Assembly: GCA_965178125.1 (NCBI GenBank)
Contig: OZ237755.1
Location: 620,001 to 684,000 of the forward strand
From: Bilabrum cf. latius
Lineage: Eukaryota
DNA length: 64,000 bases
Reading direction: 5' to 3'
Shown here: positions 5,988-29,646 of the stretch, in pieces
Position numbering within the stretch: the stretch's first letter is position 1
Layout of the letters: the number at the start of each line of letters is the position of its first letter
Made by a program: the position numbers and the translations under genes
Notes under the pieces: model-generated
The model's input: the letters and a program-made list of their open reading frames with translations, nothing else
Databases searched by the model: none
What the model was told of the DNA's origin: nothing

Positions 5988-6119
5988 CTGCGAGGCAGCA
6001 ATGGCTCAGCGTGTAAGAATTGGCAAACAGCTCAAACGCCAAGTTTTCCCGGTTGCATGGGAGATTCTCTTCACGTTTAAAAATAAAAAGGCGACGGCAA
6101 AGCATTTTTTCTGGCTAGC

Positions 6120-6187
6120 TGACGTCGGCCGAAAACAAAACAGGAATATACTTAAGTATATTCCTGTTTTGTTTTCGGCCGACGTCA
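6120..6187. repeat. Perfect 68-bp terminal palindrome
   Basis: TGACGTCGGCCGAAAACAAAACAGGAATATACTT|AAGTATATTCCTGTTTTGTTTTCGGCCGACGTCA; also at 29567-29634. Confidence 0.95.
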
Positions 6188-7120
6188 CGCATGCTTCACT
6201 TTTTTAATTTGTTCATATATTCACTTTTATTATTTTTATTTATTTATAAAATTTTAATTTATGTTTTTTTTTATTTGTGTAAAATAATAGAATATTTTAT
6301 TATTGATCGCATGGTATACTTTTTTAATTTTTAAAAAATTTCGCCAACTCATGAAAAAATGATTTTTCATTTTTTTATGATTTTCTCTAAGAAATGGATT
6401 CAAGAATTATTAATATGAAATTTAGATCTTTCGTGTTCTTTCTTTCTATTTTTTTTATATTTCTATTTTTTTGTGCATTAAATATTATTTAAAAATTGTA
6501 AAATTGATGTATTATATTAAATATTTATAATTCGTTGTGTGCATTACTTTTTTATTTTTTATGAAATTTTCGCGGAATAAGAATAAATCAATTTATTGAT
6601 TTTTATCAAAATTTATTTTTATTCGTCAGAATGAAAATTATTAAATTCGAAGAATTTAATTTATTTATTGTTCTATTGAATTTTATTTTTTATAGTTTTT
6701 TTTTACTGTTCAATTTATTGTTTCGCAAACTAAAGTTTGCTATTATTTCGGTTCTTTTGCATTTTATTTTATTATGGGCATTTTTAAGGGACTATTCATT
6801 TAAATATTTTATTGCTCTTTTTAGGGCTCTATAATTTGATTTCATGCATTGGAAAGCTCACTTCGTTCGCTATTAAGGCGATTAATTCAAGCTTTCCATT
6901 TATTCGCTATCGAGATATCCATTTAAATAATTATTAATTCGTACTTTTGCACTCTTTTGATTCGAAGAATCAAAAGGTGCAAAAATACGAATTTAGAATT
7001 ATTCTTTATAGGTAAATAGTAAATTCGTATTTTTACCACTTTTTTAAATCGTAGAATGAAGCACTTTTTATAGAAAGTAATATAGATAAGCAAAATAGAA
7101 TAAATTAATTAAAGGTGATG
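6120..7120. repeat. Left terminal inverted repeat (1001 bp)
   Basis: Reverse complement of 28634-29634. Both ends give the same coordinate sum (35754), so there is no net indel. Confidence 0.95.
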
Positions 7121-7735
7121 CTTAATTTTAAATTGGAGCTGTAATTTTGCATTTAACTCTTCGAATGTGTCATAAACATATATTTGAGAGGGTTGCAGTT
7201 CGGATATTAAATTTGTTCTTTCTCTTCTCATTACTTCTTGTACTTCATTTGTTGCTTCATATACAAGATCCTTAAATAATTTATTTGATGGTGAGGCAAC
7301 GAAAATACTAGTTTTTTTAAATAATTCTTGGGCTAGTTCTAATGATCCAGTCAAACACAACATTCTTTTTTCTTTTTTTGTTAACCATGATTTTTTTAAT
7401 GATTCGTATACTTTCTTTGCCAGTTCTTGATATAATACCCTATATGTTGAGTCATCGCCTGACTCCCTAGCTTTTTCTAATCCTTCTAAAAAAGATTTGT
7501 CCGTATCTGGATGCTTTGATACCAATTCGTCAAGGTCTACGACTAAAAGATTCGTGTCATTTCCTTCAAATTTCTTACACAATGTAGTCTTTCCGCATCC
7601 CTTGGGAATTACAAGACATGCCTTCTTAATGTCAAATGCTTTTTTTACCTTGCCCATGCAGGACACCCCATAATAGCCTAATGCTACTAGAGCCGAAGCT
7701 CCGCTTACTGATGAAATAGCTATTTCTAAAGCCAT
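7109..7735 (-). CDS. P-loop NTPase/kinase-like protein with N-terminal hydrophobic anchor
   Basis: Walker A PKGCGKTT followed by LLVVDLD; TCTA motif 14 nt upstream. Confidence 0.6.
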   Translation of the reverse strand: MALEIAISSVSGASALVALGYYGVSCMGKVKKAFDIKKACLVIPKGCGKTTLCKKFEGNDTNLLVVDLDELVSKHPDTDKSFLEGLEKARESGDDSTYRVLYQELAKKVYESLKKSWLTKKEKRMLCLTGSLELAQELFKKTSIFVASPSNKLFKDLVYEATNEVQEVMRRERTNLISELQPSQIYVYDTFEELNAKLQLQFKIKHHL

Positions 7736-7781
7736 TATATATATAACATTAGATATTTTTTTTTATTATCTTAACTTATAT

Positions 7782-8495
7782 ATGCCAAAAAATAAATTGA
7801 CAAAAAAAGAAATTATACAAATTTTAAAAAAACGAGTAAAGGGCGGGAATGTCTGGGAATTTATTAAAGATGTACCGGTGGGAACTTATAGATTTTTAAC
7901 AAGAAGAAATAAGAAACTACAGCAATTAAGTAAGGAAGCTAAATTACACGCTAAAATTGCACGTCAAACATACCCAAAGACTAAACAAAGGGATATAATA
8001 GACGGTTATCGTGTAATCTTTAAAGATGATAGAAGAAAAATTTATATTAAAAATAAAAATATCATTATTGGAGTTAGGGGTACAGTTGACGGATCGGACG
8101 TTATGGATGATTTAAAGATAGCACAAGGCACACTAGATAAAAGTGAAAACTTTAAAGATCTAGTTGATATTTATGAAGCTGTCAAACAAGCTTTTCCAGA
8201 TCATAATATTTCTTTTGCTTCTCACTCACTGGGTTCTGGGATGGTTGCATATCTTACTAAAAAATACGGTAAAGAAATTAAAGGACATTCATTTAATCCA
8301 GCTTTAAATTTTGAAATGATAAGAGACCCTAAATTTAACATTGGTAATATTAAATATCATGTTGTAGATGGCGACCCTGTAAGTCATAATTTAGCCCAAT
8401 TTATGAATCCTGATCAAGTGACATTTTATACCAGCCCTCATAAAAAGAATAATTATTTTAATGTACATGCTTTAAAGAACTTTACGGATTTATAA
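7782..8495 (+). CDS. Alpha/beta hydrolase (class 3 lipase-like)
   Basis: GVRGT, SHSLG nucleophile elbow, FNP, DPVS and a C-terminal His. Confidence 0.85.
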   Translation: MPKNKLTKKEIIQILKKRVKGGNVWEFIKDVPVGTYRFLTRRNKKLQQLSKEAKLHAKIARQTYPKTKQRDIIDGYRVIFKDDRRKIYIKNKNIIIGVRGTVDGSDVMDDLKIAQGTLDKSENFKDLVDIYEAVKQAFPDHNISFASHSLGSGMVAYLTKKYGKEIKGHSFNPALNFEMIRDPKFNIGNIKYHVVDGDPVSHNLAQFMNPDQVTFYTSPHKKNNYFNVHALKNFTDL

Positions 8496-9110
8496 ATGAG
8501 TGGTTATATAAATTTCTTCTTGCATTCTTCTAAATTCTATTTCAACTTTCATAAAGTCCGTTATCTCTTTTTTATTCAGTTGCCATAAATATAACTTTTC
8601 TAGATGTTTATTAGATTTCTCATTTAAATGGTCAATAACCTCATCAAGGGGTTTTCCCCATAGATATTCATCGATATCGTCTTCAAGTCTCATTATAAAA
8701 TCCATATTTACATATTCTTGAATATAATCAATTAATGGTTTTCTAAAACTTGTAAACTTTCGATTTACGAGTATTGGTTCATTTTTGAATATTTTTTTAT
8801 AATCTAGTGGCATTTGACATCTTAATTTCCTTTTTTCATTTTTGGTTAGTTTATTATATTTTTCATATATGATTGATAATAATTCGGTTCTCTCTTTCTT
8901 GATACGATTTATTGTGTTATGTAAATTTAATAAGTCTTTTTTAATAATTCCATTTTTAAAGAATTCAGGAGGATAACGTTCCATTAAAAACTTACGAAGT
9001 CTTAATAGTGGGGTAATTTTTGAACCTATATAACATTCTACAAATATTTGATCCTGTTGTCTATCTTTTGTGTTTTTATCGAGGAGATCACTCAACATTG
9101 ACATATACAT
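8490..9110 (-). CDS. Hypothetical virophage protein
   Basis: 206-aa ORF in AT-rich DNA, packed between viral genes. Confidence 0.7.
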   Translation of the reverse strand: MYMSMLSDLLDKNTKDRQQDQIFVECYIGSKITPLLRLRKFLMERYPPEFFKNGIIKKDLLNLHNTINRIKKERTELLSIIYEKYNKLTKNEKRKLRCQMPLDYKKIFKNEPILVNRKFTSFRKPLIDYIQEYVNMDFIMRLEDDIDEYLWGKPLDEVIDHLNEKSNKHLEKLYLWQLNKKEITDFMKVEIEFRRMQEEIYITTHL

Positions 9111-9140
9111 TTCAATAAGATTTTTCTTAAAGTTTGTTTC

Positions 9141-9452
9141 TCATAAATTATAAGTCTTTCTATAATTATCTATTGCATCCTTTAAATTGTCCTTTGACCA
9201 TAATATTCTCCAGCTTAACACAGGAGCAGACCAAGGGACATAATCAGCTTTTTCTATATAGTATTTATGTCTTTTTAGCCAGTTGACTTTTTTTTTATTA
9301 TCTTGATGGTCTATGTATGTTTTTCCATTTCTAGCCCCAAAATGCACAATATATTGTTTTGGTTCATAACCTTTTTTAGTTAATTTAAATATTGCCATTA
9401 ATCTTTTATTCTTTCTTGTAGATGGTTTAATATTTAATAATTTAATATCCAT
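9141..9452 (-). CDS. Small basic protein resembling a giant-virus conserved family (DUF5754-like)
   Basis: STRKNKR...VHFGA...YIDH.D..KK..WLKRH...LSWRILW pattern, recognised from memory. Confidence 0.6.
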   Translation of the reverse strand: MDIKLLNIKPSTRKNKRLMAIFKLTKKGYEPKQYIVHFGARNGKTYIDHQDNKKKVNWLKRHKYYIEKADYVPWSAPVLSWRILWSKDNLKDAIDNYRKTYNL

Positions 9453-9462
9453 ATGAATATAT

Positions 9463-9738
9463 ATGAACCATAGAAAATGTTTAGACGGAAAAATTCAAAG
9501 AGCACGAAGACTAATATTAAAATTACAAAATATACATAACGAATTAAATGATCTAAGTGATTTCATACGTGGTGATTTAAAATTTATGTATCTACCTTCT
9601 GATTCCATGGGACATCATAACCGATTCCAAGATAATCTAAGATATGCAAGGGTCAATTTAGAAAAAAGACTAAATAATCTTGAAACAGAATATAAAGAAA
9701 AATATGGAGTTATTCCAGTTTATAAAACTGATGTTTGA
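9463..9738 (+). CDS. Hypothetical virophage protein
   Basis: 91-aa ORF filling the gap between neighbouring viral genes. Confidence 0.5.
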   Translation: MNHRKCLDGKIQRARRLILKLQNIHNELNDLSDFIRGDLKFMYLPSDSMGHHNRFQDNLRYARVNLEKRLNNLETEYKEKYGVIPVYKTDV

Positions 9739-9800
9739 ATTGATCCAAATAGTTTTAATCTATTCTTAAATAAAAATAGAATAAAATTAATGTAATTTAT

Positions 9801-10469
9801 TTAATATCCCTTCTCCTTTAGGAATTTTGATGCTTCGCCTAGTTTCATTCCAGTCTTTTTCATAATCTTTTTTATCATAGCTCCACGTTCTTTCATCTTT
9901 TGTGATACCTTACGTTTCTTACCTCCTGTAGCTTTTTTGCCCATACCTTTCGTGGCTTTCTTTAATGCAAAATTACTAACTTGTCTAACACCTGGAGGTA
10001 AAAAGGAAGTACCAACATCAATTAAAGCGTTTTTACTTGCCTTTTTAGCATTGTATTTTCTGTGATGTTGTAATGCATCTAAGCCTTCCGTAGCATAAGC
10101 TCCTACGTATGGTATCTGACTCGTTGCTACTTTACCCAAAGAATAAAGAACATCATCAGTATCCATATTTTTAAGATCTCTTACGCCCCTTTTTACTGCA
10201 TCGCCAACTTTAGAAACTCCACGTTTTACGGTATTACCAACTCTGGAAAGACCCCTACGCAAGTTTTTCCAAAATGAGCCACCTTTTACTCTTGCATTCT
10301 CTTCGCATTCATAACATAATTTATCAGCTTGAGATTTACCCATTCCGAAAAGTTCCATTACAGCTTGTACATGTTCTTTATGTTCATTGGTTTGTTTTCC
10401 CTTAGAGTTTTTACGTTTAGGTTTTCCAGAACCTATAAGGTCCAAATATTCGTTAACTGTATATTTCAT
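9801..10469 (-). CDS. Basic putative virion core/membrane-lytic protein with diglycine sites
   Basis: Lys-rich; VKGG-SFWKNLRRGLSRVGNTVKRG amphipathic helix; TCTA motif 13 nt upstream. Confidence 0.55.
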   Translation of the reverse strand: MKYTVNEYLDLIGSGKPKRKNSKGKQTNEHKEHVQAVMELFGMGKSQADKLCYECEENARVKGGSFWKNLRRGLSRVGNTVKRGVSKVGDAVKRGVRDLKNMDTDDVLYSLGKVATSQIPYVGAYATEGLDALQHHRKYNAKKASKNALIDVGTSFLPPGVRQVSNFALKKATKGMGKKATGGKKRKVSQKMKERGAMIKKIMKKTGMKLGEASKFLKEKGY

Positions 10470-10529
10470 AATAAATTAATATTAGAAAAAAAATATTAAT
10501 TTATTGTTCTATCTATAACTAATATTTAA

Positions 10530-11102
10530 TTACAAACTATAGAAACGTTCTAAAGTGCAATAACATATTCTAGTTGGATTATTTGAGCTATAATCAATAT
10601 CAATTGAATTCTCACCAGCAAACATTAAACGTATTGCTTTATATCCATGATTTGAATCTAATGAATGTACTAATTGTATTGTTTGGGTAGATTCAGGATT
10701 TATAATATGCCACATCACGGGACAATTAGAAGGGTTAATATCCCATGTATCATCTGAGGCATTCTGAAATTGAAAGGCAATACCTGCAGATCTGACAGCT
10801 GAAGTATTCGTATTAATAAATGACATATTACATTTAATGATACAATTATAAGTGTTGTCTATTGGCATATTGTACGTTCCACCCATGATAGATAATGCCG
10901 TATCTGCAACGGTAAAAGTTGATCCATCGAAAATATTTCCTGGAGCATTTAAAGTTATAGGAGTAGTTCCATTCCCTCTATTTTGGACAAAGTGATATCC
11001 ATTAAATGTCAAATCTTGACCTTTCTTTTTAACATTTATTGCATCAATAGAATTAGCTTTTAAGTCTAGGTTATTTGAAGTTAATAAATTGCTTATACTC
11101 AT
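10530..11102 (-). CDS. Short fibre/receptor-binding-like protein
   Basis: Shares N-terminus MSISNLLxxNNLDLxA with the adjacent 682-aa protein; beta-rich composition. Confidence 0.55.
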   Translation of the reverse strand: MSISNLLTSNNLDLKANSIDAINVKKKGQDLTFNGYHFVQNRGNGTTPITLNAPGNIFDGSTFTVADTALSIMGGTYNMPIDNTYNCIIKCNMSFINTNTSAVRSAGIAFQFQNASDDTWDINPSNCPVMWHIINPESTQTIQLVHSLDSNHGYKAIRLMFAGENSIDIDYSSNNPTRICYCTLERFYSL

Positions 11103-11133
11103 AATACTATATTATTAGAAAAAAAATTTATAT

Positions 11134-13182
11134 TTATTGTATTCTAGAACACCAAGCACCATTAACATTACCTGTTGACCATAATTCTATTTCCATAGTT
11201 TGTAAATTATAATTACGATTAACTGGGGTATTCATTATTGTTGTTGTATTTGTCTGTCTGTTAAATTCGTAAATCCCTGCGGTTGTCGGAATTGAATTCC
11301 CATTCGATACATTACTTGTTTCATAGCGAATAGATACTAATGGTGAATTCTCTATTAGTATTCTATGAACTACCGCTGGATCATTATTTGTACTTTTAAA
11401 TACTGCCAGTTTAATTGTTATTTCTAATAGATTAGTTCTTGTCATAACTCCTATGTATCTAAAAGTATCTTTAATTCCAGGTTGAATTGTGAACGTGTTA
11501 GTATTAGGATCGATAATTTCTTGATTTCTTAGTCCCCGTCTTGGAAATATAGAGTTACTTGTTTCTTTTCCATCTTGTGTATCATATTTAGTACGATATG
11601 ATCCATTAATTAGTATTTCTGAAGTTTGAATTTTAGCGTCTACATTAGTATTACCAAATGTAATACTCTCTAATCCTATGATAGAATTATTATTAGCATC
11701 ATTACCAGTTGTTAACACTGAAGATAAATTAGATTGTGTTGATGGTAAATTATCCACATAAGCTTTAGTTACTGCATCAGTTGACAATGTAGGAGTTGCC
11801 AAATTTGTAATTTTAGTATTATTCATATCTAAATCGTTTAATGTTGTTGCATTTGTGACGTTTAAAGTTCCAGTGACTGCAAGATTAGAACCCATAGCAA
11901 CATTACCTGTAAAATTGCCGTCCCCTTGAACTAAAAAGTTTTGATTTACAATGATACTTTTATTTATTCTAACTCCTCCGTCAAATACAACGCTTTCATT
12001 ATCTGTATTATTAAAATTAACTAATCCGTTAACTTCTAATGCTCCTAGTGTGGATGTTCCAGTGACTCCATGAGTTCCAGAAACGGACACGTTGGATAAT
12101 GAAGATGATCCAGTTACGGACAAATCACCTTTAACGTCTGCGTTTTGTTCAAATGAATGATCTACTTTCGAAATAATTGTTTCTGGTGCTGAATCATTTA
12201 ACCCCACATCAACCCTAAATAATTCTTTATTAGGGTCACCTGAAATATTAGTATTTGGGATTTTTGTAACACTGAATCCTTCATATCCAACGGACATATA
12301 CATGCCATTTCTTGAATTAGTGTTGGGCGTCGTTGGGTCAAATACTTGATTTGATGAATCATACTTTATATTATATCCAATATGTGTATAATCTGTTTGT
12401 CTAGGTCCTGCAGGAAAGCAACCACCCCCAAACATCGCCCCATTTTGATTATATCCAGTTATCCATATACCTTCGTTTGTGTTGGGATTATTGGTGTTCA
12501 AATTTAAAACCTTATTTGGTAAAATCGTTTTAATAATGTTAGCGTCTAACTCTCCATTTACTGAAATATTACCATTAACATTTAAATTTTTGGCAATACC
12601 AACACCACCAGCGGAAACAATAGAACCATTTGTGTGATCACTTGAATCTGTAGTGTCATCTGCATTTATTTGTACTTTTGAGTCAACAGTTGAACCTAAA
12701 TATAAATTGTAATTTTCCCATCCTGTAGTTCTTTGATTTCCTGACTTATTACCTGTCCAAAAATATATATTTCTTTCTCCATTTCTTTCATCGGAATAAA
12801 TACCCATAGCAGGTTTCCAGTTAGCTGTTGGGTCTCCTCCTTCAATCAATAATGCACCTTCTGGGATTGTCATGGTTGTACCCCATCCGCTGTCATGTGC
12901 AGAACTAAAACCTTCTAAAGTTAAAGCATTGGCATTTACATTACCTCCAATATTTGCATTTCCAGTAGTTCCAATAGTTCCAACATTTTGAATGTTACGA
13001 CCGTTTGCATTGTCTCCAATGGTCAAAACTTGATCGATATTTGCACCATCCCCTGCTATAGCTGCGTCGACATATTCCTTCGTTGCTAGTTGGGTATTTT
13101 CTGTTATTCTTGTATTTGAAACAATGACACGACTAGCTCTAAGATCCAAATTATTATTTGATAGTAAATTAGATATACTCAT
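11134..13182 (-). CDS. Long fibre-like protein
   Basis: N/G/T-rich beta repeats, xTKxYVD neck motifs (LATKEYVD, AVTKAYVD), GGVGIAKNL repeats typical of viral fibres. Confidence 0.65.
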   Translation of the reverse strand: MSISNLLSNNNLDLRASRVIVSNTRITENTQLATKEYVDAAIAGDGANIDQVLTIGDNANGRNIQNVGTIGTTGNANIGGNVNANALTLEGFSSAHDSGWGTTMTIPEGALLIEGGDPTANWKPAMGIYSDERNGERNIYFWTGNKSGNQRTTGWENYNLYLGSTVDSKVQINADDTTDSSDHTNGSIVSAGGVGIAKNLNVNGNISVNGELDANIIKTILPNKVLNLNTNNPNTNEGIWITGYNQNGAMFGGGCFPAGPRQTDYTHIGYNIKYDSSNQVFDPTTPNTNSRNGMYMSVGYEGFSVTKIPNTNISGDPNKELFRVDVGLNDSAPETIISKVDHSFEQNADVKGDLSVTGSSSLSNVSVSGTHGVTGTSTLGALEVNGLVNFNNTDNESVVFDGGVRINKSIIVNQNFLVQGDGNFTGNVAMGSNLAVTGTLNVTNATTLNDLDMNNTKITNLATPTLSTDAVTKAYVDNLPSTQSNLSSVLTTGNDANNNSIIGLESITFGNTNVDAKIQTSEILINGSYRTKYDTQDGKETSNSIFPRRGLRNQEIIDPNTNTFTIQPGIKDTFRYIGVMTRTNLLEITIKLAVFKSTNNDPAVVHRILIENSPLVSIRYETSNVSNGNSIPTTAGIYEFNRQTNTTTIMNTPVNRNYNLQTMEIELWSTGNVNGAWCSRIQ

Positions 13183-13952
13183 TTTATAAATTAAGATTAG
13201 AAATTTATTCTAACTTTAATTTAATATATTATAATTTTTAAGTTTCTAATGTTCCCATTATTTCGGCTACTAGGTCGTCATCTGCATCGTCTGCTTCTCC
13301 TTCTGATTCACTTTCAAATAACACTGCTAGTCCATCGGCTTCGTCACCTTCACCATCGGCTACTCTTCTTCTTCTTTCTCTTCTTTCTTCTCTTCTTTCT
13401 TCTCTGGTTCTTGCTCTGTCTTCTCTAACTCTTTTCATTTTATTGGCTCTTCTTTTAAACCTATTGAATAATTGCACCTTACGCACTCTGTCGGCTTCAG
13501 CTGCAAGTACTTTTGCTTCGTCTCTGAGTGGTTGCATTTTTGCTCTTAATTCTGTTAGTGTTTCTCTTGCTCCTTCAAAAGCTTTTTTCTTTTCTCGTAA
13601 GTCTTTAGCTTCTTTGAATTCTCTCAATCTTTCATTTAATTCTTCTTCACGTTCTTCTATTTCATTTCTCACACTTGCTTTAATTTCTGGGAAACTTGCT
13701 TTAACCTCTTTTAATATATTGCGCACATCAACTAAATCTTGAATCGGAGAGGCTGAAACATACTTTTCATATAAATCAACAAAATCTTCGGCACTAAGTC
13801 CTTTAATATCTCTATTATAATTTAAACCTTTCTCGTCTCTTTCTGATGGTGTTAATATTTCATCTAAGAAAGTATTAAATTTACCTTTTAATGATGATAT
13901 CTGTCTTTTAACGTCTCGCATTTCTGTAGGTAATGGTTTAGCACTCTTTAAT

Positions 13953-14128
13953 TGATCCTAACGCCGGATGGGGTTCGGTGTTGATGCCAGAGTGGGAGCG
14001 CGTGAACGTCTCGTTGGGTTCCGATGGCGGTTGCGACCGGGAAGGTGCGACCAAGCCAACGGATTGCTTGCGATGACGCGCATACCCTCTCTGTGTTCAG
14101 GAGAGGGGCGGAGATTGGGTAATTTTTG
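13953..14128 (+). repeat. Ngaro repeat A1 (176 bp; A2 at 16233-16408)
   Basis: Direct repeat at offset 2280. Confidence 0.92.
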
Positions 14129-15148
14129 GGCCTCACCTACGACTTGATCAAACACGAGGTGCGGTGCCCTAAGGACAAGGCCACCGACGTCCTGCGCAGA
14201 CTGCACGAGGCACTCACGACGAAGGGGATGCTGCTGTCTAGCTTTGAGACCTTGGTCGGCAAGTTGTCCTTCCTGTCGGGCGCACTTTATGGTATGCGCG
14301 GTGCTCTACGTCCCCTGTATGACGCCAAGGGCTGGGCCCTTCACAAGTAGGCCAGCCGGTCACGACCAGGTGAGGTGTGGGTCCCCACCTCCTTCGTGTC
14401 CAAGGGTGGCTTCACAGTTGGGGAAATCCTCGAGGGATTCCAGGTGGCTATCCAGCGCAAAGGCGGGCGCAGTTTTCCGATGCGGGGCACCATTGACTGT
14501 CCCATCATTCGCACTGATGCGTCGGTGACAGGCTACGGCGCCGAGCTACTTCTCCACGACACGGACGGAAACATCACATCGCACACCGGCATCCACGGCA
14601 CTTGGCCGCATCGCCTAGAGGCGAAGGATGTAGCGGCGGCAGAACTTGCAACATGTTTGTTGGCACTGGCGCATTGGCGACAGCACCTGCGTGGACGTGT
14701 GGTGCGTTTGTGGTGTGATAATGATGCTTCCGTGTAGCTGATACGCTACGGCAGACCCAAGAGCCACATCATGGCAGCCTTACTTCGCCCTATCTTCGTA
14801 CTGCAGACAACGCAAGATGTGCAGATTCACGTGAAACACATTCCTGGCGAGGACAACATCGTTGCGGACGCTTTGAGCCGCGGCTCACAGGAGGCATACA
14901 CGCACCTGGACGCGGTGTATCAGGTCGACTGTCCCACGCCGATCTGGAGGACCTTGTACAAGCACGACCATTTCACGCTGGTGGCCACTCTGGACTCAGT
15001 GGGTTGCGCACGGCGTGGGGGCACTTCGACAACTTCCTCACGTGGTACGACATCGACCGCAGCTTCATGGACGGGCATCTTCCAGCAGCTCGCAGACTCT
15101 TCGCGTTCAGGCTCAATGCAGCGCTCTCGAGATTTGCAGTCTTCTTAG
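14123..15148 (+). pseudogene. 5'-truncated reverse transcriptase (from the FLG motif) plus RNase H
   Basis: FLGLTYD, LVGKLSF, IRTDASVTGYG, AELA, WCDN, HIPGEDNIVADALSR in one frame across TAGs at 14348-50 and 14735-37. The frame stays open to TGA 15866-68 if TAG is Gln. No YxDD region. Confidence 0.85.
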
Positions 15149-16062
15149 GGGAATGTTCGCCTCTCAGTGGCGGCACCATCGCTACATACACCAGAAATGC
15201 CTAGCGAGTCGTCATCGAGTCCACAGGAGCGTGCGGCGTCCCACGGTCAAGCTAGCTCGACAGCATCCTCCGGTACTACCACAAAGCATCGCCATCGGCG
15301 CACCCGTGGCGTCGATCTTCAGCCCCACTCCGCGCAATCCGACGGTGTTTCTCGACAGCCGGTTGCAGCACAACAGAGTAGGCTGCTCGGGCAGCTGTCT
15401 GTCTCTGCTTCTGTGGGGGCCTCCGGCTGGGAGAGCTCGTCGGTGCGTCCAGACGACAAGCCGGCCTCCAATGGCAGCAAGTGCAGTTCATCACGCGAGA
15501 CGGACGCATCCATGGTGTTGCCATCCGCCTGGGCCTCCACAAAGCCGACGGTCCAGCCAAGTTCTCCATCCAAGCCGCAGAGCCCATCGCAGTCCATTGC
15601 AGAGCCGGACGATGGGCAGTCACAGGCAGCAGGTTCTGCGGCGTGCGAGCCTTCGTGGCGTGGGCAGCAGCGAGCCACGCCCCAACTGCAGGCGCAGACG
15701 AAGACTACGCCCGGTAGCTGGCGCTCAGCTGCCCCACGTCAGGGCCAGTCTTCGTGGCGAACACGAAGCCGATCGTCAAGGCGCAGGTCGTACGGGCGCT
15801 CCGCAGCTTCTGCTCACGAGAAGTTGCAGGAGCGGTGCACGGACATTCCATCCGCATCGCGGCAGTGATGTGTTTGGACCGTGCTGGGGTCGCCTTCGAG
15901 GTCATTAGGCGATTCGGCAGATGGAAGTCGGCATCTGCATGCGAGGTGTACTTGCGGGGCGTCAGGGAAGGCTTGCCTCCTCTGGAGCTCGGCGGCAGGA
16001 GCCTCGATTTGAACAGGCCAGTGTGGGTGCTGGCCAGCGCGCTGCGGCTGAACTTGGAGTGA
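15004..16062 (+). CDS. DIRS/Ngaro tyrosine recombinase (start uncertain; four in-frame TAG)
   Basis: GGLRLGEL, HSIRI, GRWKS and VYLR catalytic motifs in one frame (ORFs 15004, 15481, 15754); ends at TGA. Confidence 0.88.
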
Positions 16063-16102
16063 GCCACACAGCCGCAGCGTACAAGACATGGCGGTAAGAT
16101 TT

Positions 16103-16233
16103 GGCGGAGTAGTGCACGTGCTCTTCCCAGCCCCGGTCAGTCCGGTCAAGGGTAGCGCACAGGCACAGCTTTGTCAGGTCTTGCCATGTCTGATTGTTAA
16201 CGAGACTAGGTTGCGCGTACACTCTGGCATCAT
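16103..16233 (+). repeat. Ngaro repeat B1 (131 bp; B2 at 16435-16565)
   Basis: Direct repeat at offset 332. Confidence 0.92.
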
Positions 16234-17436
16234 GATCCTAACGCCGGATGGGGTTCGGTGTTGATGCCAGAGTGGGAGCGCGTGAACGTCTCGTTGGGTT
16301 CCGATGGCGGTTGCGACCGGGAAGGTGCGACCAAGCCAACGGATTGCTTGCGATGACGCGCATACCCTCTCTGTGTTCAGGAGAGGGGCGGAGATTGGGT
16401 AATTTTTGCCCACCCTCCCAACCCCCTCCTCCTCGGCGGAGTAGTGCACGTGCTCTTCCCAGCCCCGGTCAGTCCGGTCAAGGGTAGCGCACAGGCACAG
16501 CTTTGTCAGGTCTTGCCATGTCTGATTGTTAACGAGACTAGGTTGCGCGTACACTCTGGCATCATCATAAAATTTATTTCTTTCTGAAAAATCAGTTACA
16601 ATTATCTCAATTAAATCCTCTTTAGATAATTCTTTTTCTCTTACTAATTCTGCAACATCTCTATCAGGTTCAACCGCTTGAACATCTCTTATTAACATTT
16701 GTAACGGTCTATCTTTTAAAATACCTCTTAGTTCTTCTTGTGCATTCGTAATATCCCTATCAATTGCAGAACGTGGACTTTTAAATTTAGATAAATCTTT
16801 ACCCAGCATTGTTTCAATTCTAAACCTAAGCTCTGTTTTTGGTACTCCGTCGGGTATTTCTAAACCTTTTCGTATTTCTTCAATTTCTTCATCACTAAAT
16901 TCATCAATTTTAGTTGTGCTTAACTGTTTTAGTAATACTTGAAACTGTGCATCAGTAATTAATTTATTTGTCGCCAAACTTTCAAGTTCTAATGTTTTAT
17001 TTTGAATTTTTACTTTTTCTCTTTCACTTGATGGTAATGTTTCAATTTTTCCTACGAATTGCTTTAAAAAACTATTAACCCTGCCGATCATTGGTAAACT
17101 TGGGTTTTCTTTTAACATTATTTCCTTCATTCTATCTAAATTAACATTAATTTTTGTTGCATTGTCAGAATTTAAACCATCAACTAGTTCGGATACAACG
17201 GTTCTTAATACTGAGTCCATACGTTGCTCTCTTCTTCTAAGCTCTAGGGGCTGAAATTGCGACGATAACACTATATCATCCCTTCTTTTTTGATCTCTTA
17301 AAGCCTCTAAAATAGATTGTCTTTCATTCTTTAAACTTAAATTTCTATTTTCTACTCCTTTATTGGATTCTTGACGTCTTATATTTTGCTGTCTTAGTAT
17401 ATTTCTTAATTCAGTTGACATATAATATATTTACAC

Positions 17437-17454
17437 TAGAAAAAAATTAATCTA
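17437..17454. promoter_or_regulatory. Back-to-back TCTA late-promoter motifs for the two divergent genes
   Basis: TAGA 17437-40 and TCTA 17451-54 are each 15 nt from an ATG; the same motif precedes most viral genes. Confidence 0.65.
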
Positions 17455-17469
17455 ATGTTATTCTATATA

Positions 17470-18318
17470 ATGGAAATTAACAATAAAACCATCAAACTAT
17501 TTAATACTGACCATTCCGCATTGTTTAAAGATCTTATGTTAATAAAAGATGCAGATATGTTATTAAATGGTTCTTTTCCTATTTCATTTTTTGCTTCTGA
17601 TCTTGATTTATATATGAAATTAGAAATGAAACAATATAAACTTCTTTTACGTGAACTATTCAGCTTTCTAATTGACATTGGTGATCACATAGATGTTAGT
17701 GAACTTAAAATAGGTAAAAAGAAAGCAGGAACACAAAGAAAAGCTATCAAATTACTTGCTGATGAACTAGAAAACCCAAAGTATATTAACCAAGATAAAA
17801 AATGGGTTAAACTTGATTTAATAGTATTTACTAATGGGTATTATGAAGAGGTTACGATAATTTATGATTTTGGTGATTCAATTATGGGAAAAACTAAAGA
17901 TGAAATAACAGAAGATTTAATAGAAGACGCCATGAAATTGGAAAAAGAAGGAAAATATTATAAAGCCCTTAAGAGATTGCGTGAGATATACCGAAGAACA
18001 GGATACGACGATAAAATGGAAGAAATTAATAGTTTGTTAAGTTCTGACAATGTGGGTTTTTTATATCTTACTAATGCAAGACTTGAAGCACTTAAAAATG
18101 TACGAGATACAACGGCAACTAAAAACTATGTTATGAATAATATTAAAGAGGATTTAATGGTTAGACTTAAAAATATGTTTAATTTGGATCTTAAGAAATC
18201 AGATTTTAAAATGAAAAATATTAGTAAAATACAAAAAGAAGTTATGAAAAAATTACATTCTTATATCACAAATGACGTTAAAAACGAAATTAAGGCATTC
18301 AAGCGTTTAATTAAATAA
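17470..18318 (+). CDS. Putative Pol-beta superfamily nucleotidyltransferase
   Basis: LLNGSFPISFFASDLDLY matches hGS...DhD; candidate third Asp in VKLDLIV. Start chosen by TCTA spacing (alternative 17455). Confidence 0.55.
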   Translation: MEINNKTIKLFNTDHSALFKDLMLIKDADMLLNGSFPISFFASDLDLYMKLEMKQYKLLLRELFSFLIDIGDHIDVSELKIGKKKAGTQRKAIKLLADELENPKYINQDKKWVKLDLIVFTNGYYEEVTIIYDFGDSIMGKTKDEITEDLIEDAMKLEKEGKYYKALKRLREIYRRTGYDDKMEEINSLLSSDNVGFLYLTNARLEALKNVRDTTATKNYVMNNIKEDLMVRLKNMFNLDLKKSDFKMKNISKIQKEVMKKLHSYITNDVKNEIKAFKRLIK

Positions 18319-18411
18319 CATTTTAAAATTGTTGCATGACTATCTTTCTTTTTTTGTCAAATTCAAAAAATATTTTCTATTATATAAATATTATCTATAC
18401 TAAATTATAAT

Positions 18412-19473
18412 ATGTTTAGTTACAGCGGAGGAGATGATTCAATACCCATTGCATACCGTAAATATACAGGTAATAACCAGCAAAGCAAGAATAAAATATT
18501 ATATTATGACAATGAATGTAAAAATAAAGAATTAGAGCCCGAAGATATTACAGATGACCAATTATATGCAATCTTTGGAACTCATGCGGTAAGATCAAAG
18601 AAAGCTAAAGAACAGAAAAAGCAAGAATTAATAAATTTATATAATGGAACAGAAGAAGCCCAAAAATTCAACAGTGAAGAGATAAAAGATAAATCAATGT
18701 TTCGAGTTATTCCGTATTCACTAGGTCATACTGAAGATGACTCATTTAATAGATTCGTATTCTTTTTAAATGGTAAGTCTGGTTCTGGAAAGTCATATTT
18801 TTCAACTGAAATAATGGAAATGTCACGAAAATTTGGAATTAAAAAGATTTATGTGATCACGGATGTCAAAGATTCTAAATTTGGAAAAGTGAAATATTTA
18901 GATATTAATTCATTAGTTGGTGAAAATGTGAGCCATGAAGACGCAAAAAAAGAGTATGAAAAAGCAAAGATTAAATTTAAATACAAAAAGAAAATGTATG
19001 CAGATGACCCAGAAATGCTAATGAAGTTAGAATTAATGTTACATGATATGAAACCAGACGGAAAAGGCAAAGATAAATTTGAGTTTAAAATAGATCAAGA
19101 AGCAAGAGATGCTATATTTCAAGATTCATTAGTTTTATTTGATGATTACGAAAATAACCCAGATATTGGAAAGATTGAATTTTTAAGGGACACCCTATTA
19201 ACCAAGGGGAGACACACTAAGACTAATTTAATTATATGTAATCACAAAGGGTCAGATGGTGCACATATGAAGTTAATTAAAATTGAAACGACCGATTATG
19301 TATTTTTTAGTAAAGGTACAGACCATGAACGTAATTATTTATTAAGAACTTATTTAGGATTCAATAAAGAACAAATTAAAAGGGTTAAACTAGCATTGAA
19401 AAAATCTAGATGGATTAGTATAAACCCAGATATAGGCTATATGATAAGTCAAAAGGAAGCGATAAAAATTTAA
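18412..19473 (+). CDS. FtsK-HerA-type genome packaging ATPase
   Basis: GKSGSGKS, LVLFDD, KGRH arginine finger, LIICNH. Confidence 0.9.
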   Translation: MFSYSGGDDSIPIAYRKYTGNNQQSKNKILYYDNECKNKELEPEDITDDQLYAIFGTHAVRSKKAKEQKKQELINLYNGTEEAQKFNSEEIKDKSMFRVIPYSLGHTEDDSFNRFVFFLNGKSGSGKSYFSTEIMEMSRKFGIKKIYVITDVKDSKFGKVKYLDINSLVGENVSHEDAKKEYEKAKIKFKYKKKMYADDPEMLMKLELMLHDMKPDGKGKDKFEFKIDQEARDAIFQDSLVLFDDYENNPDIGKIEFLRDTLLTKGRHTKTNLIICNHKGSDGAHMKLIKIETTDYVFFSKGTDHERNYLLRTYLGFNKEQIKRVKLALKKSRWISINPDIGYMISQKEAIKI

Positions 19474-19504
19474 GTTATAATAATTTTCTTAACTATTTAT
19501 ATTA

Positions 19505-20068
19505 ATGGATAGCGAAGAATTAAAAAAACTTGTTGGAACATATCTTAGTCCTCAAGAATTAAAAGAACTATGGAACAAACATCCACACACCAAAGGTTCA
19601 GCTCCTCGTGTTGTATTATATGACGATATTATAAATTCTCCATCAATTAAATCATTATTTCAAGGAGATAATAAATTAATTGTATTTTATCCAATGATTA
19701 AACAAGGAAATGCAACATCGGGGCATTATGTAGCTTTAACAAAAAAGGGAAATACTATTTATTTTTATGATAGTTACGGCGGACTCCCTGATGTTGGGCA
19801 AAAAAAATATGCAGATTTGAATTTATATCAAGAATCTAATAATACACTGATTAGACATTTATTAGATAGTGGATATGACGTGGATTATTCACCATATAAG
19901 CATCAAGGAGAAGGTTCTCATATAGCGAGTTGTGGAAGGCACTCATTAAACCGCGTACACTATGCCGATCTTACAAATGATCAATATAATCAACTAATGC
20001 AAGAGGCAAAAAAGAAACTTAAAAATAGACATTCAATAGATGAAATAGTTACGATGGCTTTTCATTAA
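19505..20068 (+). CDS. Maturation cysteine protease (adenain/Ulp1-like)
   Basis: GHYVAL...FYDSYG...HQ...SCGRH, giving the H-D-Q-C arrangement. Confidence 0.9.
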   Translation: MDSEELKKLVGTYLSPQELKELWNKHPHTKGSAPRVVLYDDIINSPSIKSLFQGDNKLIVFYPMIKQGNATSGHYVALTKKGNTIYFYDSYGGLPDVGQKKYADLNLYQESNNTLIRHLLDSGYDVDYSPYKHQGEGSHIASCGRHSLNRVHYADLTNDQYNQLMQEAKKKLKNRHSIDEIVTMAFH

Positions 20069-20129
20069 GGAGTATAAAAAAGCGATAGAGTCAAGCCTCC
20101 ATATATTGAACTCTTAATATTTACAATTA

Positions 20130-20211
20130 AGTTAAATCCAAATTCGTACTTATTGCACCCTTTTGATTCTCCGAATCAAGAGGGTGCAAAAGTACGAATT
20201 TGGATTTAACT
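20130..20211. repeat. Long imperfect hairpin homologous to the TIR hairpins (6936-6993, 28761-28818)
   Basis: Arms AAATTCGTACTT.TTGCACCCT.TTGATTC / GAATCAA.AGGGTGCAA.AAGTACGAATTT with a 3-nt loop. Confidence 0.85.
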
Positions 20212-20396
20212 AATATACCGTATTTTCTAAATTCGTATTTTTGCACCTTTTAGGTAGAATTTATAGCCCATAGAATTTAACGCCTTTTATGATTAATCAT
20301 TATCACTTTTTAGTCAGAATTTAACGCCTTTTTTGGTGGTAAAACGCGGGGGTAAAATATCTAAAGAAAAAAATATATAGTATTTATATATATAAA

Positions 20397-23318
20397 ATGT
20401 CAGAATTCAAAGTAACAAAACTATTAAACCTTGAATGGTACAAGAACACAAAAAAATCTAACTGGTCAGGTGCTCAGGATCACGTAATCAAGAATAGAAA
20501 AGATAAAGAAATGGTTATTAAATCATGGACTAAAAAGCACGGTCAAATGTGGACATCATGCAAACCAGAAATGGCGAAGAAACTATTAAACAAAAACCGC
20601 GGAATTTATGAGTACATTATAGATTATCCTTTTAAAGTTTATTTCGATATTGACCATAAAGGAAAAGATGAAACTTTATTAAATACGGTTCTTGATAATA
20701 TTAAATCTAGTTTTCCAAATGCAAAAATTGCAGTTAGTGGATCTATTACAGACGAAAAAACAAGTTATCATATAACACTTAATAATTATGTTATTGAAAA
20801 TGAAGAACAAAGAACCGAATTTTTAGGATGGCTTAAAGATCAAGGCAAACCATACGATCCATGTGTATATAAAAAAAACCAAACTATGAAATGCCCTAAT
20901 CAGTCAAAACAAAATAGAGAAATTCAAAAGATTATTAGTGATGACAATTTAGAACATCATTTAATAAGTTCTTTTATTCCTTCTCATACTGAACCATTCC
21001 CCAAACTTCTTACAAGCAATAAATTAAATGAAATTAAACAAGAAAATCAAAGAAAAGGATTCGATATTTCAAAACTCCCAAAATTAACCCTTAAAATTCC
21101 CAATTCAACCAGCTTAAACCCTGATGCTTTAGAACTTCTTAACTTAGCCCCTCTCAATGAGAATTTTGATCATGGATATACACATTTTGCTTGTCGTTTT
21201 GCTTTCCATAATGATATATGCTTTAATGATTTTTGGAAATGGAACAGTAAAAAGAATAATTCTAATGATCGTATGGCTAAGTGGTTTAAACATTGGGACA
21301 AAATGGAAACGTTCCCCCCTGTATCTATATCAAACTTTCAATTTATGCTTTATAAGTTTTACCCTGATATTTACAAAACTAGAGCATTTAGAAAATTCAA
21401 ACAGATGACAGATATTAAATATGATACATTAACTGAATATTTAACCGTTCAAGATATTGACACATTACATAAATATAGTATATTGGCCCATCCCATGGGT
21501 TGCGGTAAGACGACCAATGTCATAAATTATATTTGTAAGAATAAAAACAAAAATGCAATTTGGATAACTCCACGCCGTGCATTGGCAAGAAACACAGCCC
21601 AAAGATGCGACAATGCAGGACTTGAAATGAAAAATTATTTAGATTACAAAAACAGCAGGGAAAAAATGGAGGAATTACCACAACAACAACAATTAATTAT
21701 TAATACTCAATCTTTGTTTTATCTTCATGATAATGAAGAAGAGGCAAAATATGACATTGTTGTTATTGATGAAATTGAAACAGTTCTTAAATCATGGACA
21801 GCATATACAACATTCAAAGGTAAGAATTTAGAAAAATGTTGGACCACTTTTATTAAAATTCTTAAGTCAGCAAAAAAAGTTATTTTATTGGATGCTTTTA
21901 TTACTGATATTACATTAAACTTTATTGATCGTTTTGATGGTTCAGCTTATAAAAATATTATTGGAGCTAAAAATGCACCAGTTGGACGTAAAATGAAGTT
22001 TTTGACTGAAAGAACACTTTCAGTATGGCTTAAATATATTATTGATGACTTGAAGAATGAAAAGAAATTATTTATTTTTTATCCTTATAAAAAGGATTCT
22101 TCTAAATTTCCATCAATGGAAAAATTAAAGGCAGAACTGGAAAAGAAAACAGAAAAAAAGGGTATTTGTTACCATGGAGACAGTGGTGTCAATGTTAATA
22201 ATACATTAAAAGATGTAAATAAGCATTGGTCAGATTATGATTTTATTTTAACTAATAGTAAAATCACGGTTGGAGTAAATTATGATAAAAAGAAATTCGA
22301 TCGTGTATATTTGGCATTGTCTGGGTTTAGTTCTCCACGTGATGTGATCCAAGCATCTTATAGAATCCGTAATATATCCGACAATGAAGTAATATCAACA
22401 ATTTTAAATTTAAATAAATTTTCAGGAACTGATGAAAGCTATAGAGTCAAAGACAAGAATTTTAAAAAGCTTGTTAATGATTTAATGGTCGAGGATTCCT
22501 CCCCAATTGTTGAAACATTTAAATTATTTTCACATAAAGCACATTATAAATTTATTGATGTTCCTATTCATTTAAATAAAAAAGAAGAAAGAGAATATTT
22601 GAAATACCTTCAAGAGGATGACACATATTACAGCTGGGATTCAATCCCTTGTTTTAACAAAAAATATAAAGAACTTGCAGAAAAGGAAACAAAAAAGAAC
22701 CCATTGGATACTGATATTTTAGATGAAATAGAACAATTAAAAAAAAATGAAATTGAAGCGGTACAATCTAGAATATACGCAGGTTGTGCATCAATGGAAG
22801 ACACGTTGACAATGCAAAAGTATTATTTCCAAAAGGTATTTAATGAAAAAACAACAGTGGAACAAATGGCTAAAGCTTGGGATGGTAAATATAATGAATT
22901 CATTAATAAGTACATTTTTTTTTTCAATATCGAAATCAAAAAAGGAGCTGTTCATTTAAAAGAAACCTCAAAAATGAAGAACATATTAGATCAATTGAAT
23001 CTAAATTTAAATTCAACAGTTGAAAAGATTGAAAAATGCAAATTAACAGACAAACAAAAAGAAGAAATTAATAATTATATTTTGGATAACAACAAATTAA
23101 ATAACTCATCTAGTATTAAATATATTAGTAAACTTATCAATACATTTTTTGGTGGTTATCATATCACTTATAAACAAACCAAAAGCAGAAATGGAGAATA
23201 TAAAAGATCAAATAAATTCAGTCAAATGATTGAATTCTGTCAAGATCATATTTATGACTTTGAAGATGATAATGAAGAAGACGACGGAGTTTTTCATGAA
23301 GATGATTTATTTGAATAA
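20397..23318 (+). CDS. AEP primase fused to an SF2 helicase (herpes UL9/origin-binding-like)
   Basis: YFDID and SYHI primase motifs; PMGCGKTT, IDEIE, LLDA, TVGVNY and QASYRIRN helicase motifs. Confidence 0.85.
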   Translation: MSEFKVTKLLNLEWYKNTKKSNWSGAQDHVIKNRKDKEMVIKSWTKKHGQMWTSCKPEMAKKLLNKNRGIYEYIIDYPFKVYFDIDHKGKDETLLNTVLDNIKSSFPNAKIAVSGSITDEKTSYHITLNNYVIENEEQRTEFLGWLKDQGKPYDPCVYKKNQTMKCPNQSKQNREIQKIISDDNLEHHLISSFIPSHTEPFPKLLTSNKLNEIKQENQRKGFDISKLPKLTLKIPNSTSLNPDALELLNLAPLNENFDHGYTHFACRFAFHNDICFNDFWKWNSKKNNSNDRMAKWFKHWDKMETFPPVSISNFQFMLYKFYPDIYKTRAFRKFKQMTDIKYDTLTEYLTVQDIDTLHKYSILAHPMGCGKTTNVINYICKNKNKNAIWITPRRALARNTAQRCDNAGLEMKNYLDYKNSREKMEELPQQQQLIINTQSLFYLHDNEEEAKYDIVVIDEIETVLKSWTAYTTFKGKNLEKCWTTFIKILKSAKKVILLDAFITDITLNFIDRFDGSAYKNIIGAKNAPVGRKMKFLTERTLSVWLKYIIDDLKNEKKLFIFYPYKKDSSKFPSMEKLKAELEKKTEKKGICYHGDSGVNVNNTLKDVNKHWSDYDFILTNSKITVGVNYDKKKFDRVYLALSGFSSPRDVIQASYRIRNISDNEVISTILNLNKFSGTDESYRVKDKNFKKLVNDLMVEDSSPIVETFKLFSHKAHYKFIDVPIHLNKKEEREYLKYLQEDDTYYSWDSIPCFNKKYKELAEKETKKNPLDTDILDEIEQLKKNEIEAVQSRIYAGCASMEDTLTMQKYYFQKVFNEKTTVEQMAKAWDGKYNEFINKYIFFFNIEIKKGAVHLKETSKMKNILDQLNLNLNSTVEKIEKCKLTDKQKEEINNYILDNNKLNNSSSIKYISKLINTFFGGYHITYKQTKSRNGEYKRSNKFSQMIEFCQDHIYDFEDDNEEDDGVFHEDDLFE

Positions 23319-23435
23319 AAAAAAAGAATATTACAAGAGAACTAATGAAATAATTTAATTAGAAAATACATCATTATTAACAGTTTAAAACGTACTTAAA
23401 CAATATTTTTTATATAAGCATATATTATATAAAGA

Positions 23436-24419
23436 ATGTCTTTTTATGAAAAAATACAAAATCTTGAACCTAAAATGTCTATTTTTGATAAAATACAAAA
23501 AATAAAGCCCAATCTTGCCGAAAAAAGCATAGATGATTATATTAGAATCTATGAAAAAATAGAGAAACAAGATAAACCAATAATTGAATACTTAAAAGAT
23601 GATGTACCACAATCTAACCAATCATCTTTTTTACATAAATATATAACAGTTTGTAAGGCAATAAATAAACATTATGATGAAACATTAAATAAACAATTAA
23701 TTGAATTGAAAAAAAACAACAAATATTATAATAAAAATGCCAAGGAACATATCAAAGGTTTTAAATATTTTGATATTGAAAAGAAATTAAAAGAAATTGA
23801 AGGAGGCAATAATAATAAAATGAATGAATATAGAGCATGGCTTTTATCTCTTTACGCATATATGCCACCTCTTAGAGTCACGGAATGGTTAACAACTAAA
23901 ATATTAGATACTGACAACCACGAAGAAGAAAATAAATTATTGTTAGATGATAAAGAGATCCACATATACGATCATAAAACTAAAAAGTCTAACGGTGTCA
24001 AATATATTAAAGTTCCAGATAGTGTTATTTATTATTGTAAGCATTTTAAAGAAAAATATAAATGTGAATATGTTTTATCTCCATTCAAGAATCCAAATAA
24101 AAAAAATGATCAATCCAGTATAACAAAAATATTAAACAAGATTTTCAAAAAGAAAGTTTCTATTAATGATTTTAGAAATGTATATATTAGTGAGAAAATG
24201 AATAAAGGAACGTTATTTACTAATGATGAAAGAGAAGACTTAGCCCGTGTTATGGGAAATTCACCAAGCACTCAAATGTTAACATACACTAAATATTGTC
24301 AATCTAATAATAATGATAAAAAACCAGAAGATGCTATATTATCTATGATTAATGATAAGTCAAAACAGGAACAAATAAAAATATTATTAAATTGCATGAA
24401 TAAATTGAATTCATCTTAA
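23436..24419 (+). CDS. Tyrosine recombinase-family protein
   Basis: PPLRVTE, HKT, NDFRNVYIS and LARVMGNSPSTQMLTY motifs. Confidence 0.8.
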   Translation: MSFYEKIQNLEPKMSIFDKIQKIKPNLAEKSIDDYIRIYEKIEKQDKPIIEYLKDDVPQSNQSSFLHKYITVCKAINKHYDETLNKQLIELKKNNKYYNKNAKEHIKGFKYFDIEKKLKEIEGGNNNKMNEYRAWLLSLYAYMPPLRVTEWLTTKILDTDNHEEENKLLLDDKEIHIYDHKTKKSNGVKYIKVPDSVIYYCKHFKEKYKCEYVLSPFKNPNKKNDQSSITKILNKIFKKKVSINDFRNVYISEKMNKGTLFTNDEREDLARVMGNSPSTQMLTYTKYCQSNNNDKKPEDAILSMINDKSKQEQIKILLNCMNKLNSS

Positions 24420-25589: not shown

Positions 25590-25662
25590 AAATACTAATA
25601 ATTTTAGTTTAGAAATAAATCTAAATTAAAATCTTTTAATTAACACAATAACATTAATTTAT

Positions 25663-27456: not shown

Positions 27457-27526
27457 AATAAATTAACATTAGAAAAAAATTATTATATTTTTGTCTAATT
27501 GATTATTAAAACTTATATTATTTTTA

Positions 27527-28417: not shown

Positions 28418-28633
28418 AATATTATATAGTTAGAAAAAATATATAGTTTTTATTTTCGCTTTTTTTTTCTTGTGTATAATTATATAGATACGATATAGGG
28501 ATTTAATCGGCTTGAAGTGTCTATGTCATTTGTTTTTGAGTTGTTCATGTTAGCCAGACATTGTTTTATATATATCTACATACTTTTTAGTGTGTATCTA
28601 TATAACTTTTAATTTTTAACTTTTAAAATAAAA

Positions 28634-29634: not shown

Positions 29635-29646
29635 CTAGCTACTCAC

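Follow-up and report, generated by a model that had tools for sequence, protein, structure and literature searches.

An endogenous virophage with terminal palindromes, and flip/flop isomers in its relatives that suggest hairpin telomeres of the kind known from poxviruses

The closest described case is that of the endogenous virophages of Halocafeteria seosinensis, for which a preprint of July 2026 (bioRxiv 10.64898/2026.07.28.741278) reports terminal palindromes in subtypes 1, 2, 5 and 6 and in the PLV subtype 4. The palindromes are tied there to non-pPolB genes and to particular integrases, and a hairpin-priming model is put forward, with accidental annealing offered as an alternative and a call for experiments. 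For end completion in linear virophages and polinton-like viruses without a protein-primed polymerase, the preprint thus proposed hairpins from the palindromes alone. Its main text, as far as available, makes no mention of flip, flop, isomers, imperfect pairing, mismatch or resolution. In our literature search it is the only prior art for hairpin or palindromic ends of virophages or polintons, and that search, in which subscription journals were barely covered, turned up no account of flip/flop ends for either virophages or PLVs. The palindrome as such is already in print, and the flip/flop evidence given below appears to be new.

With regard to other hairpin ends, vaccinia virus resolves its junctions by cutting the extruded form at its base, and the products are two equally frequent isomers, with the ends in four arrangements (PMC8956199), and flip/flop hairpin telomeres are mentioned for Asfarviridae and Phycodnaviridae (PMC11788076). 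PLV end modules have been linked to poxvirus TIRs (PMC11296320), in an account that mentions tyrosine-recombinase dimer resolution for poxvirus ends and, in the text available, no palindromes. Protelomerases make their cuts 6 bp apart at the centre of the palindrome (PMC3558466). The available text of PMC8547959, on the EMALEs of Cafeteria burkhardae, makes no mention of palindromes or hairpins, and the same holds for the available text of PMC10945749, PMC12220804 and bioRxiv 10.1101/2025.10.09.676808.

The locus discussed here lies in 64,000 nucleotides of contig OZ237755.1 of Bilabrum cf. latius (assembly GCA_965178125.1, positions 620,001 to 684,000), the whole of which we call the window. 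It holds a complete endogenous virophage of 23,515 bp (6120..29634), with 29% GC when its insert is left out, in host DNA of about 60% GC. That the element is an endogenous virophage (Maveriviricetes) follows from its virophage-type capsid protein, TIRs, short duplication and rve integrase. At 6120..6187 there is a loopless perfect palindrome with 34-bp arms, starting with TG and ending with CA, and an identical 68-bp copy is present at 29567..29634, which confirms the original prediction of a palindrome at both termini. A 1013-bp TIR (6120..7132 on the forward strand, 28622..29634 on the reverse) has the palindromes at its very tips, and its arms are identical at 1011 of 1013 positions, with both mismatches at the inner edge. 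A 5-bp target-site duplication adjoins the palindromes directly on both sides, with the left copy read from the sequence as CTAGC (6115..6119, forward strand) and the right copy at 29635..29639 (forward strand), and no long frame crosses the empty site in the host flanks. Each TIR also contains a 72-bp imperfect inverted repeat (6972..7043 and 28711..28782), and a diverged third copy (20179..20251), just upstream of the replication gene, is a possible origin or promoter element.

The best perfect arm in 100 composition-preserving shuffles of the window was only 13 bp, against the real 34 bp, and a chance origin of the arms is therefore excluded. The next-longest real perfect arm in the window is 17 bp and lies within a GC triplet repeat. 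As DNA, the 68-bp palindrome has a folding energy of -38.8 kcal/mol (z -16.2), and none of 200 shuffles was as stable. The stem has no unpaired bases, an incompletely paired stem being present only in the group of relatives that we call family F, and as the tip in the window is fully symmetric it cannot itself reveal flipping.

The gene content is that of a virophage. The major capsid protein (25663..27456, reverse strand) matches PF22031, MCP_V20_C, at E 1.7e-13, above the curated cut-off, and it is preceded by a gene for a probable penton (27527..28417, reverse strand), which has no Pfam match and is named for its size and its place before the capsid gene. The rve (DDE) integrase, recognised by Pfam (24411..25589, reverse strand), carries a chromodomain and has D82, D142 and E178 intact. 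Next to it is a tyrosine recombinase of Xer/Cre type (23436..24419, forward strand, 327 aa). The replication protein (20397..23318, forward strand, 973 aa) has an SF2 helicase domain (DEAD, E 4e-8, and ResIII) and a putative N-terminal primase, and is related to a protein with PriCT_2 and Herpes_ori_bp (E 4e-25). A probable packaging ATPase (18412..19473, forward strand) has a P-loop with only sub-threshold Pfam matches, and a probable maturation cysteine protease (19505..20068, forward strand), which lacks a Pfam match, is named for its position and motifs. A GC-rich (60%) insert of 2.6 kb (13953..16568) interrupts a gene that is a single 464-aa frame in the sister element on contig C1; it has split direct repeats in the order A1..B1A2B2, a layout described for Ngaro retrotransposons (PMC8547959). 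Repeats related to this Ngaro-like insert also occur within other virophages of the genome. An AT-rich motif of about 60 bp recurs at gene boundaries (10467, 11100, 17421, 27454 and 28415) and is probably a promoter or terminator that the element shares with a helper virus.

In the case of pPolB, none of the 19 ORFs of the window has a Pfam match to it, nor does any match a profile built from six pPolBs of elements in the same genome, a local profile being used because a genome-wide Pfam search for pPolB had missed known copies. The absence of pPolB that had been predicted is thus borne out, and protein-primed ends can be rejected for this element, as it has no pPolB and the elements here that have one end in poly-G or poly-C. 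A search for a Holliday-junction resolvase gave no match among the 19 ORFs in Pfam or among 9 in PHROGs, several of the ORFs being without assignment, and no HUH/Rep nickase was matched by Pfam among the 19.

The 48.6-Mb genome gave 61 capsid matches, and we compared the 16 elements with resolved ends, several capsid-bearing regions with unresolved ends being left out. Eight have palindromic ends, these being the window element and those on C1, C40, C20, C3, C25, C16 and C5 (the last with coverage of all but about 1.1 kb at one end), and eight have poly-G or poly-C ends (C37, two on C9, two on C6, C4, C12 and C2). pPolB is present in none of the eight palindrome-ended elements versus all eight of the others, and the tyrosine recombinase in seven of the eight versus none, counts that are not independent because the elements amount to about four and five families respectively. 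Four virophage families of this genome carry palindromic tips, and those of families C and G end in TC...GA, unlike the TG...CA of the window element. The replication proteins of palindrome-ended elements vary: those of C1, C20 and C5 are helicases of DUF5906 type, and those of the window element, C40, C25 and family F are of SF2-helicase or Prim-Pol type. When 12 integrases were placed in a tree, the six from palindrome-ended elements, that of the window element included, fell on one side of a branch with 100/100 support, together with one from an element with unresolved ends; the program warned of long branches, and a partial frame on C1, a second copy from family F and a type I protein on C9 were left out. 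The family F integrase is 31% identical to that of the window element. Palindromic ends thus go together with a single integrase group and with the absence of pPolB, and the recombinase co-varies with them almost as well as the integrase group does.

The element on C37 is a natural end-module swap. Its capsid, ATPase, protease and penton genes match the window element at 58-81%, and it has pPolB, poly-C ends and an integrase only 23% identical.

Some further observations on the virophages of this genome may be recorded. On contigs C2, C3, C6 and C9 virophages are nested in other virophages, with mixed end types. A GC-rich self-inverted region of 9.2 kb (C14:1109324-1118554, L017-L018), which is either real or an assembly fold-back, adjoins a partial element with a related integrase and recombinase. 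Most virophage families here have in-frame TAG in core genes, for example L069-L070 (C20), L042 (C2), L066 (C4) and L013-L015 (C37), and the family of the window element has none in its own core genes. Opposite in-frame TAGs the homologs most often have Gln (117 of 338 aligned positions, which are not independent), and this suggests from the alignments that TAG may be read as Gln in these viruses, and perhaps in the host too. Virophage genes also include a Tet/JBP oxygenase fused to an FkbM methyltransferase, and a C5 cytosine methylase (L069:990-3041, L038:2003-3133 and L039:442-1509), for which DNA base modification is a possible role.

It is in family F that the ends are most informative. 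The tip is a 101-nt imperfect palindrome with 19-bp outer arms, a bulge of 10 versus 19 nt and a perfect 17+17 core, and it occurs in two forms, of which flop is the exact reverse complement of flip across the 101 nt. There are 13 flip and 15 flop among 28 ends; for two the score was taken from the inner half alone, and two with a flank in common are maybe not independent. Thirteen elements could be paired by their duplications, and flip/flip was found in 3, flop/flop in 4 and mixed ends, in both orders, in 6, which fits the 1:1:2 of independent ends (p 0.89). The 5-bp duplication is exact in 10 of the 13 pairs, and in the other 3, which have an incomplete outer arm, it was read by eye. In perfect palindromes with an odd centre the central base flips in the same way, being T at one end and A at the other in C1, which is among the closest sisters of the window element, and T in three and A in three of six family C ends. 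Integrated copies act here as single-molecule snapshots, and the isomers in relatives of the window element show the pattern known from poxvirus hairpin telomeres. The 1:1 ratio and the independence of the ends are the first genomic sign that we have found of such palindromes inverting as hairpin telomeres do. The strongest evidence for hairpins comes from family F and not from the window's own element. Three ends that lack the outer arm, L006 (right end, C36), L114 (left end, C28) and L099 (left end, C2), keep 1-4 terminal bases and the duplication, and all three resume 4 bases before the centre; they could be repair products of hairpin opening, or read errors.

Mirrored changes in sister elements had been named as a check on the original prediction, and they were found. 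The C1/C36 palindrome differs from that in the window at 6 of 34 arm positions, all of them mirrored, and has one extra central base; C40 is a third variant, and in family G 4 pairs of mirrored changes set two variants apart. In each of the seven sequence variants the symmetry runs right to the centre or stops at just one central base. For the family of the window element, the variable, self-complementary centre has 6-7 bp and is flanked by a conserved 9-bp block. Two solo family C palindromes in host DNA carry unmirrored mismatches, which indicates that the host does not keep the symmetry. These aged solo copies, without a virus body and in GC-rich host DNA, are L084:1499-1570 (C11) and L085:1501-1561 (C30), and L150:974-1060 (C29) is an aged solo partial palindrome of family F. 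They resemble solo LTRs, and one has a 4-bp flanking match.

We consider that the palindrome is probably the unfolded hairpin telomere of a pPolB-less virophage, the junction having been cut at its base and the end transferred by the integrase; both the left and the right copy are read in this way. Outside the chromosome the ends of the linear genome would fold back, and replication through a hairpin end would give a head-to-head junction that holds the palindrome as duplex. If this junction were opened at the palindrome base and not at its tip, the two strands of the palindrome, top and bottom, would go to different daughters, and any asymmetry would appear as flip or flop, with each end independent of the other. 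It is at this base that element and duplication adjoin, at TG...CA, and rve integrases use TG...CA ends. The integrase would then use the 3'-OH after the CA at the palindrome edge for strand transfer, and host repair would unfold the hairpin, leaving a whole palindrome flush with the 5-bp duplication. Candidates for the cut at the base would be the integrase itself, or a Holliday-junction resolvase supplied by the host or by a helper giant virus. If the cut lay 3 bp from the tip, a single round would be enough to make the two arms the same; as the family F bulge survives at 17 bp from the tip, that family needs a cut at or beyond the palindrome base. The case for this account is weaker for the window's own family, in which the arms are perfect and the recombinase co-varies with the palindromes. 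Pairing up to the centre or a single central base is more than a free hairpin loop needs, and suits a tip-cutting enzyme or selection for cruciform extrusion. Taken over the three hairpin models that we consider, hairpin ends as such are likely.

The recombinase bears directly on where the cut is made. It has R147, K181, R247 and Y284, and the first three are invariant in an alignment of 117 sequences, taken from the first 151 of 410 relatives that a full search found (a word-indexed homolog search found 1). At position 275 it has Asn, versus the catalytic-region His in 116 of the 117, and this change is common to all three sisters, that is the window element and both sisters checked. Of the aligned sequences 23 match PF00589, and the best PDB profile match of the recombinase is an archaeal Xer (E 2.7e-9). 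With an E limit of 10 the search matched 22 PDB sequences, none of them a protelomerase, nor is there one among the 25 listed of 28 Pfam families matched. A structure prediction without alignment was useless (pLDDT 36.7), and the model that was used has a pLDDT of 91.6. It compares best with XerA (Z 13.7, rmsd 15.6, 242 aligned) and Cre (Z 13.3, rmsd 4.5, 272 aligned), ahead of TelA (Z 7.1, rmsd 5.3, 221 aligned), TelK (Z 6.5, rmsd 5.8, 230 aligned) and ResT (Z 4.9, rmsd 6.1, 141 aligned). On the predicted fold, which is Xer/Cre-like, membership of the protelomerase family is rejected, and this concerns the family and not the activity. The recombinase profile also detects the gene in families C and G; the complete family F element gave no full-length recombinase with it, the best match being a 70-residue frame (E 4e-4). 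The original prediction was of possible fold-back ends opened before integration, and it pointed to protelomerases as the enzymes that resolve such palindromes in linear replicons; fold-back ends opened on integration are supported by the mirrored changes and by flip/flop, and resolution by a protelomerase is not borne out, given the Xer/Cre fold, the varied centres and a family F that is bulged yet without a full-length recombinase.

An alternative that keeps hairpin ends would have the tyrosine recombinase cut the tip in protelomerase fashion in the families with perfect palindromes, that of the window included, family F having lost the enzyme and taken another route. It has in its favour the distribution of the recombinase given above, the sole bulged family being the one without it, and the perfect arms with mirrored changes that tip cutting yields; the 9-bp block around a self-complementary centre is the layout of a recombinase core site, and the shared change from His to Asn can be counted on the same side, although Asn275 may equally mean reduced activity. 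We nevertheless think this alternative unlikely, as the protelomerases score far lower than Xer and Cre in both fold and profile, and as recombinases that are 95-96% identical face three different palindrome centres, one even and two odd, whereas TelA rejects most other central sequences (PMC3558466). The recombinase could also have a role without any hairpin genome, the palindrome being a symmetric recombination site or circle junction and flip/flop arising when duplex DNA inverts between the outer arms. Because a palindrome is a direct repeat as well, the two ends could recombine with release of a circle, leaving in GC-rich host DNA solo palindromes such as the two of family C; these however also fit ordinary host deletion between direct repeats. 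A role in integration into giant-virus genomes has been suggested for virophage recombinases (PMC8547959). But staggered opening of a circle with one junction always gives mixed ends, and is therefore contradicted by the 7 of 13 family F elements that have like ends; family F moreover flips across 19-bp outer arms without a recombinase of its own, and it is left unexplained why palindromes replace the ends linked to pPolB. This makes a model without hairpin ends improbable.

Open palindromic ends, never closed, are the remaining hairpin model, with brief fold-back priming as in model D of the Halocafeteria preprint (bioRxiv 10.64898/2026.07.28.741278), or a parvovirus-like hairpin transfer with a nickase. 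This model too predicts that pPolB is absent, that the ends occur as flip and flop and that the cut falls at the base, and at the closure step the present data fit it and the base-cut hairpin that we favour equally well. We give it little weight, since the nickase that the second version calls for is unmatched among the 19 ORFs of the window and a nick would still be needed at the inner edge of the palindrome, coinciding with the integrase site. An artefact of fold-back in sequencing or assembly, or an accident of repair at integration, is hardly credible as the source of the palindromes. The three ends from which most of the outer arm is missing may be read errors at hairpins, but in many copies the two ends carry identical palindromes of fixed length that directly abut 5-bp duplications. 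These palindromes are family-specific, all eight pPolB elements of the same assembly lack them, and fold-back copying cannot produce the family F bulge, which differs between the arms.

A more tentative extension of the favoured reading, the cut at the palindrome base, is that the rve integrase doubles as the telomere resolvase, by staggered 3'-processing after CA on both strands of the junction; we regard this as doubtful. The cuts would here be 68 nt apart, and each of the two daughters would carry a palindromic 3' overhang that folds back into a hairpin with a nick. Such a hairpin could be closed ahead of replication and packaging, or could enter strand transfer into host DNA as it is. A resolvase of this kind predicts the 1:1:2 ratio of ends that is observed. 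If it exists, one DDE enzyme replaces the terminal protein of pPolB, resolves concatemers, integrates the genome and releases the provirus, and this would account for palindromes that stay with the integrase group through exchanges of the replication genes. Searches of viral_contigs and metagenome_contigs with the capsid, the integrase and the core pattern found no free or concatemeric form: the capsid query gave 0 confirmed loci in viral_contigs, the integrase alignment 3 distant loci, none with a palindrome arm of at least 14 bp, and the core pattern 3 matches without extended palindrome in viral_contigs and 0 in metagenome_contigs. Of seven public sequencing runs listed, five contain 0.90-0.96 of the sequence words; they belong to two studies, one of which may be the source, and no RNA run was among those listed. 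Should hairpin ends be confirmed, ends of poxvirus style exist within the virophage lineage, and the end type is a module that can be swapped together with the integrase. The junctions are short and offer a small substrate for finding the cutting enzyme in vitro, and flip/flop makes the hairpin model testable.

With regard to known systems, the element resembles those of Halocafeteria in having the palindrome inside the TIR, an adjoining duplication and a non-pPolB replication gene, and the present study differs from that preprint in showing flip/flop isomers, mirrored changes and an end-module swap. The hosts also differ, that of Halocafeteria having 39 Mb at 47% GC and no Ngaro, and the present genome 48.6 Mb, about 60% GC in the window and Ngaro-like inserts. 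Among EMALEs the mid-GC types 5-8 of Cafeteria burkhardae are the nearest, as they too lack pPolB and have a long primase/helicase, a tyrosine recombinase and a distinct rve version, and further resemble our element in TIRs, short duplications and Ngaro inserts (PMC8547959), although the window element is low in GC (29%).

In the case of protelomerase telomeres (TelK, TelA, ResT) the likeness is a palindromic junction with a self-complementary centre and a nearby gene of the tyrosine-recombinase superfamily (PMC3558466); in contrast the recombinase here is Xer/Cre-like, the centres vary in sequence and parity, and family F is bulged and without the gene. Poxviruses do not integrate and have their own Holliday-junction resolvase, A22 (PMC8956199), none being recognised in the window element. 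The palindrome of the window element, unlike theirs, has no unpaired bases. Family F is nevertheless like the poxviruses in its equal reverse-complement isomers, its four end arrangements and its AT-rich, imperfectly paired stem (PMC8956199).
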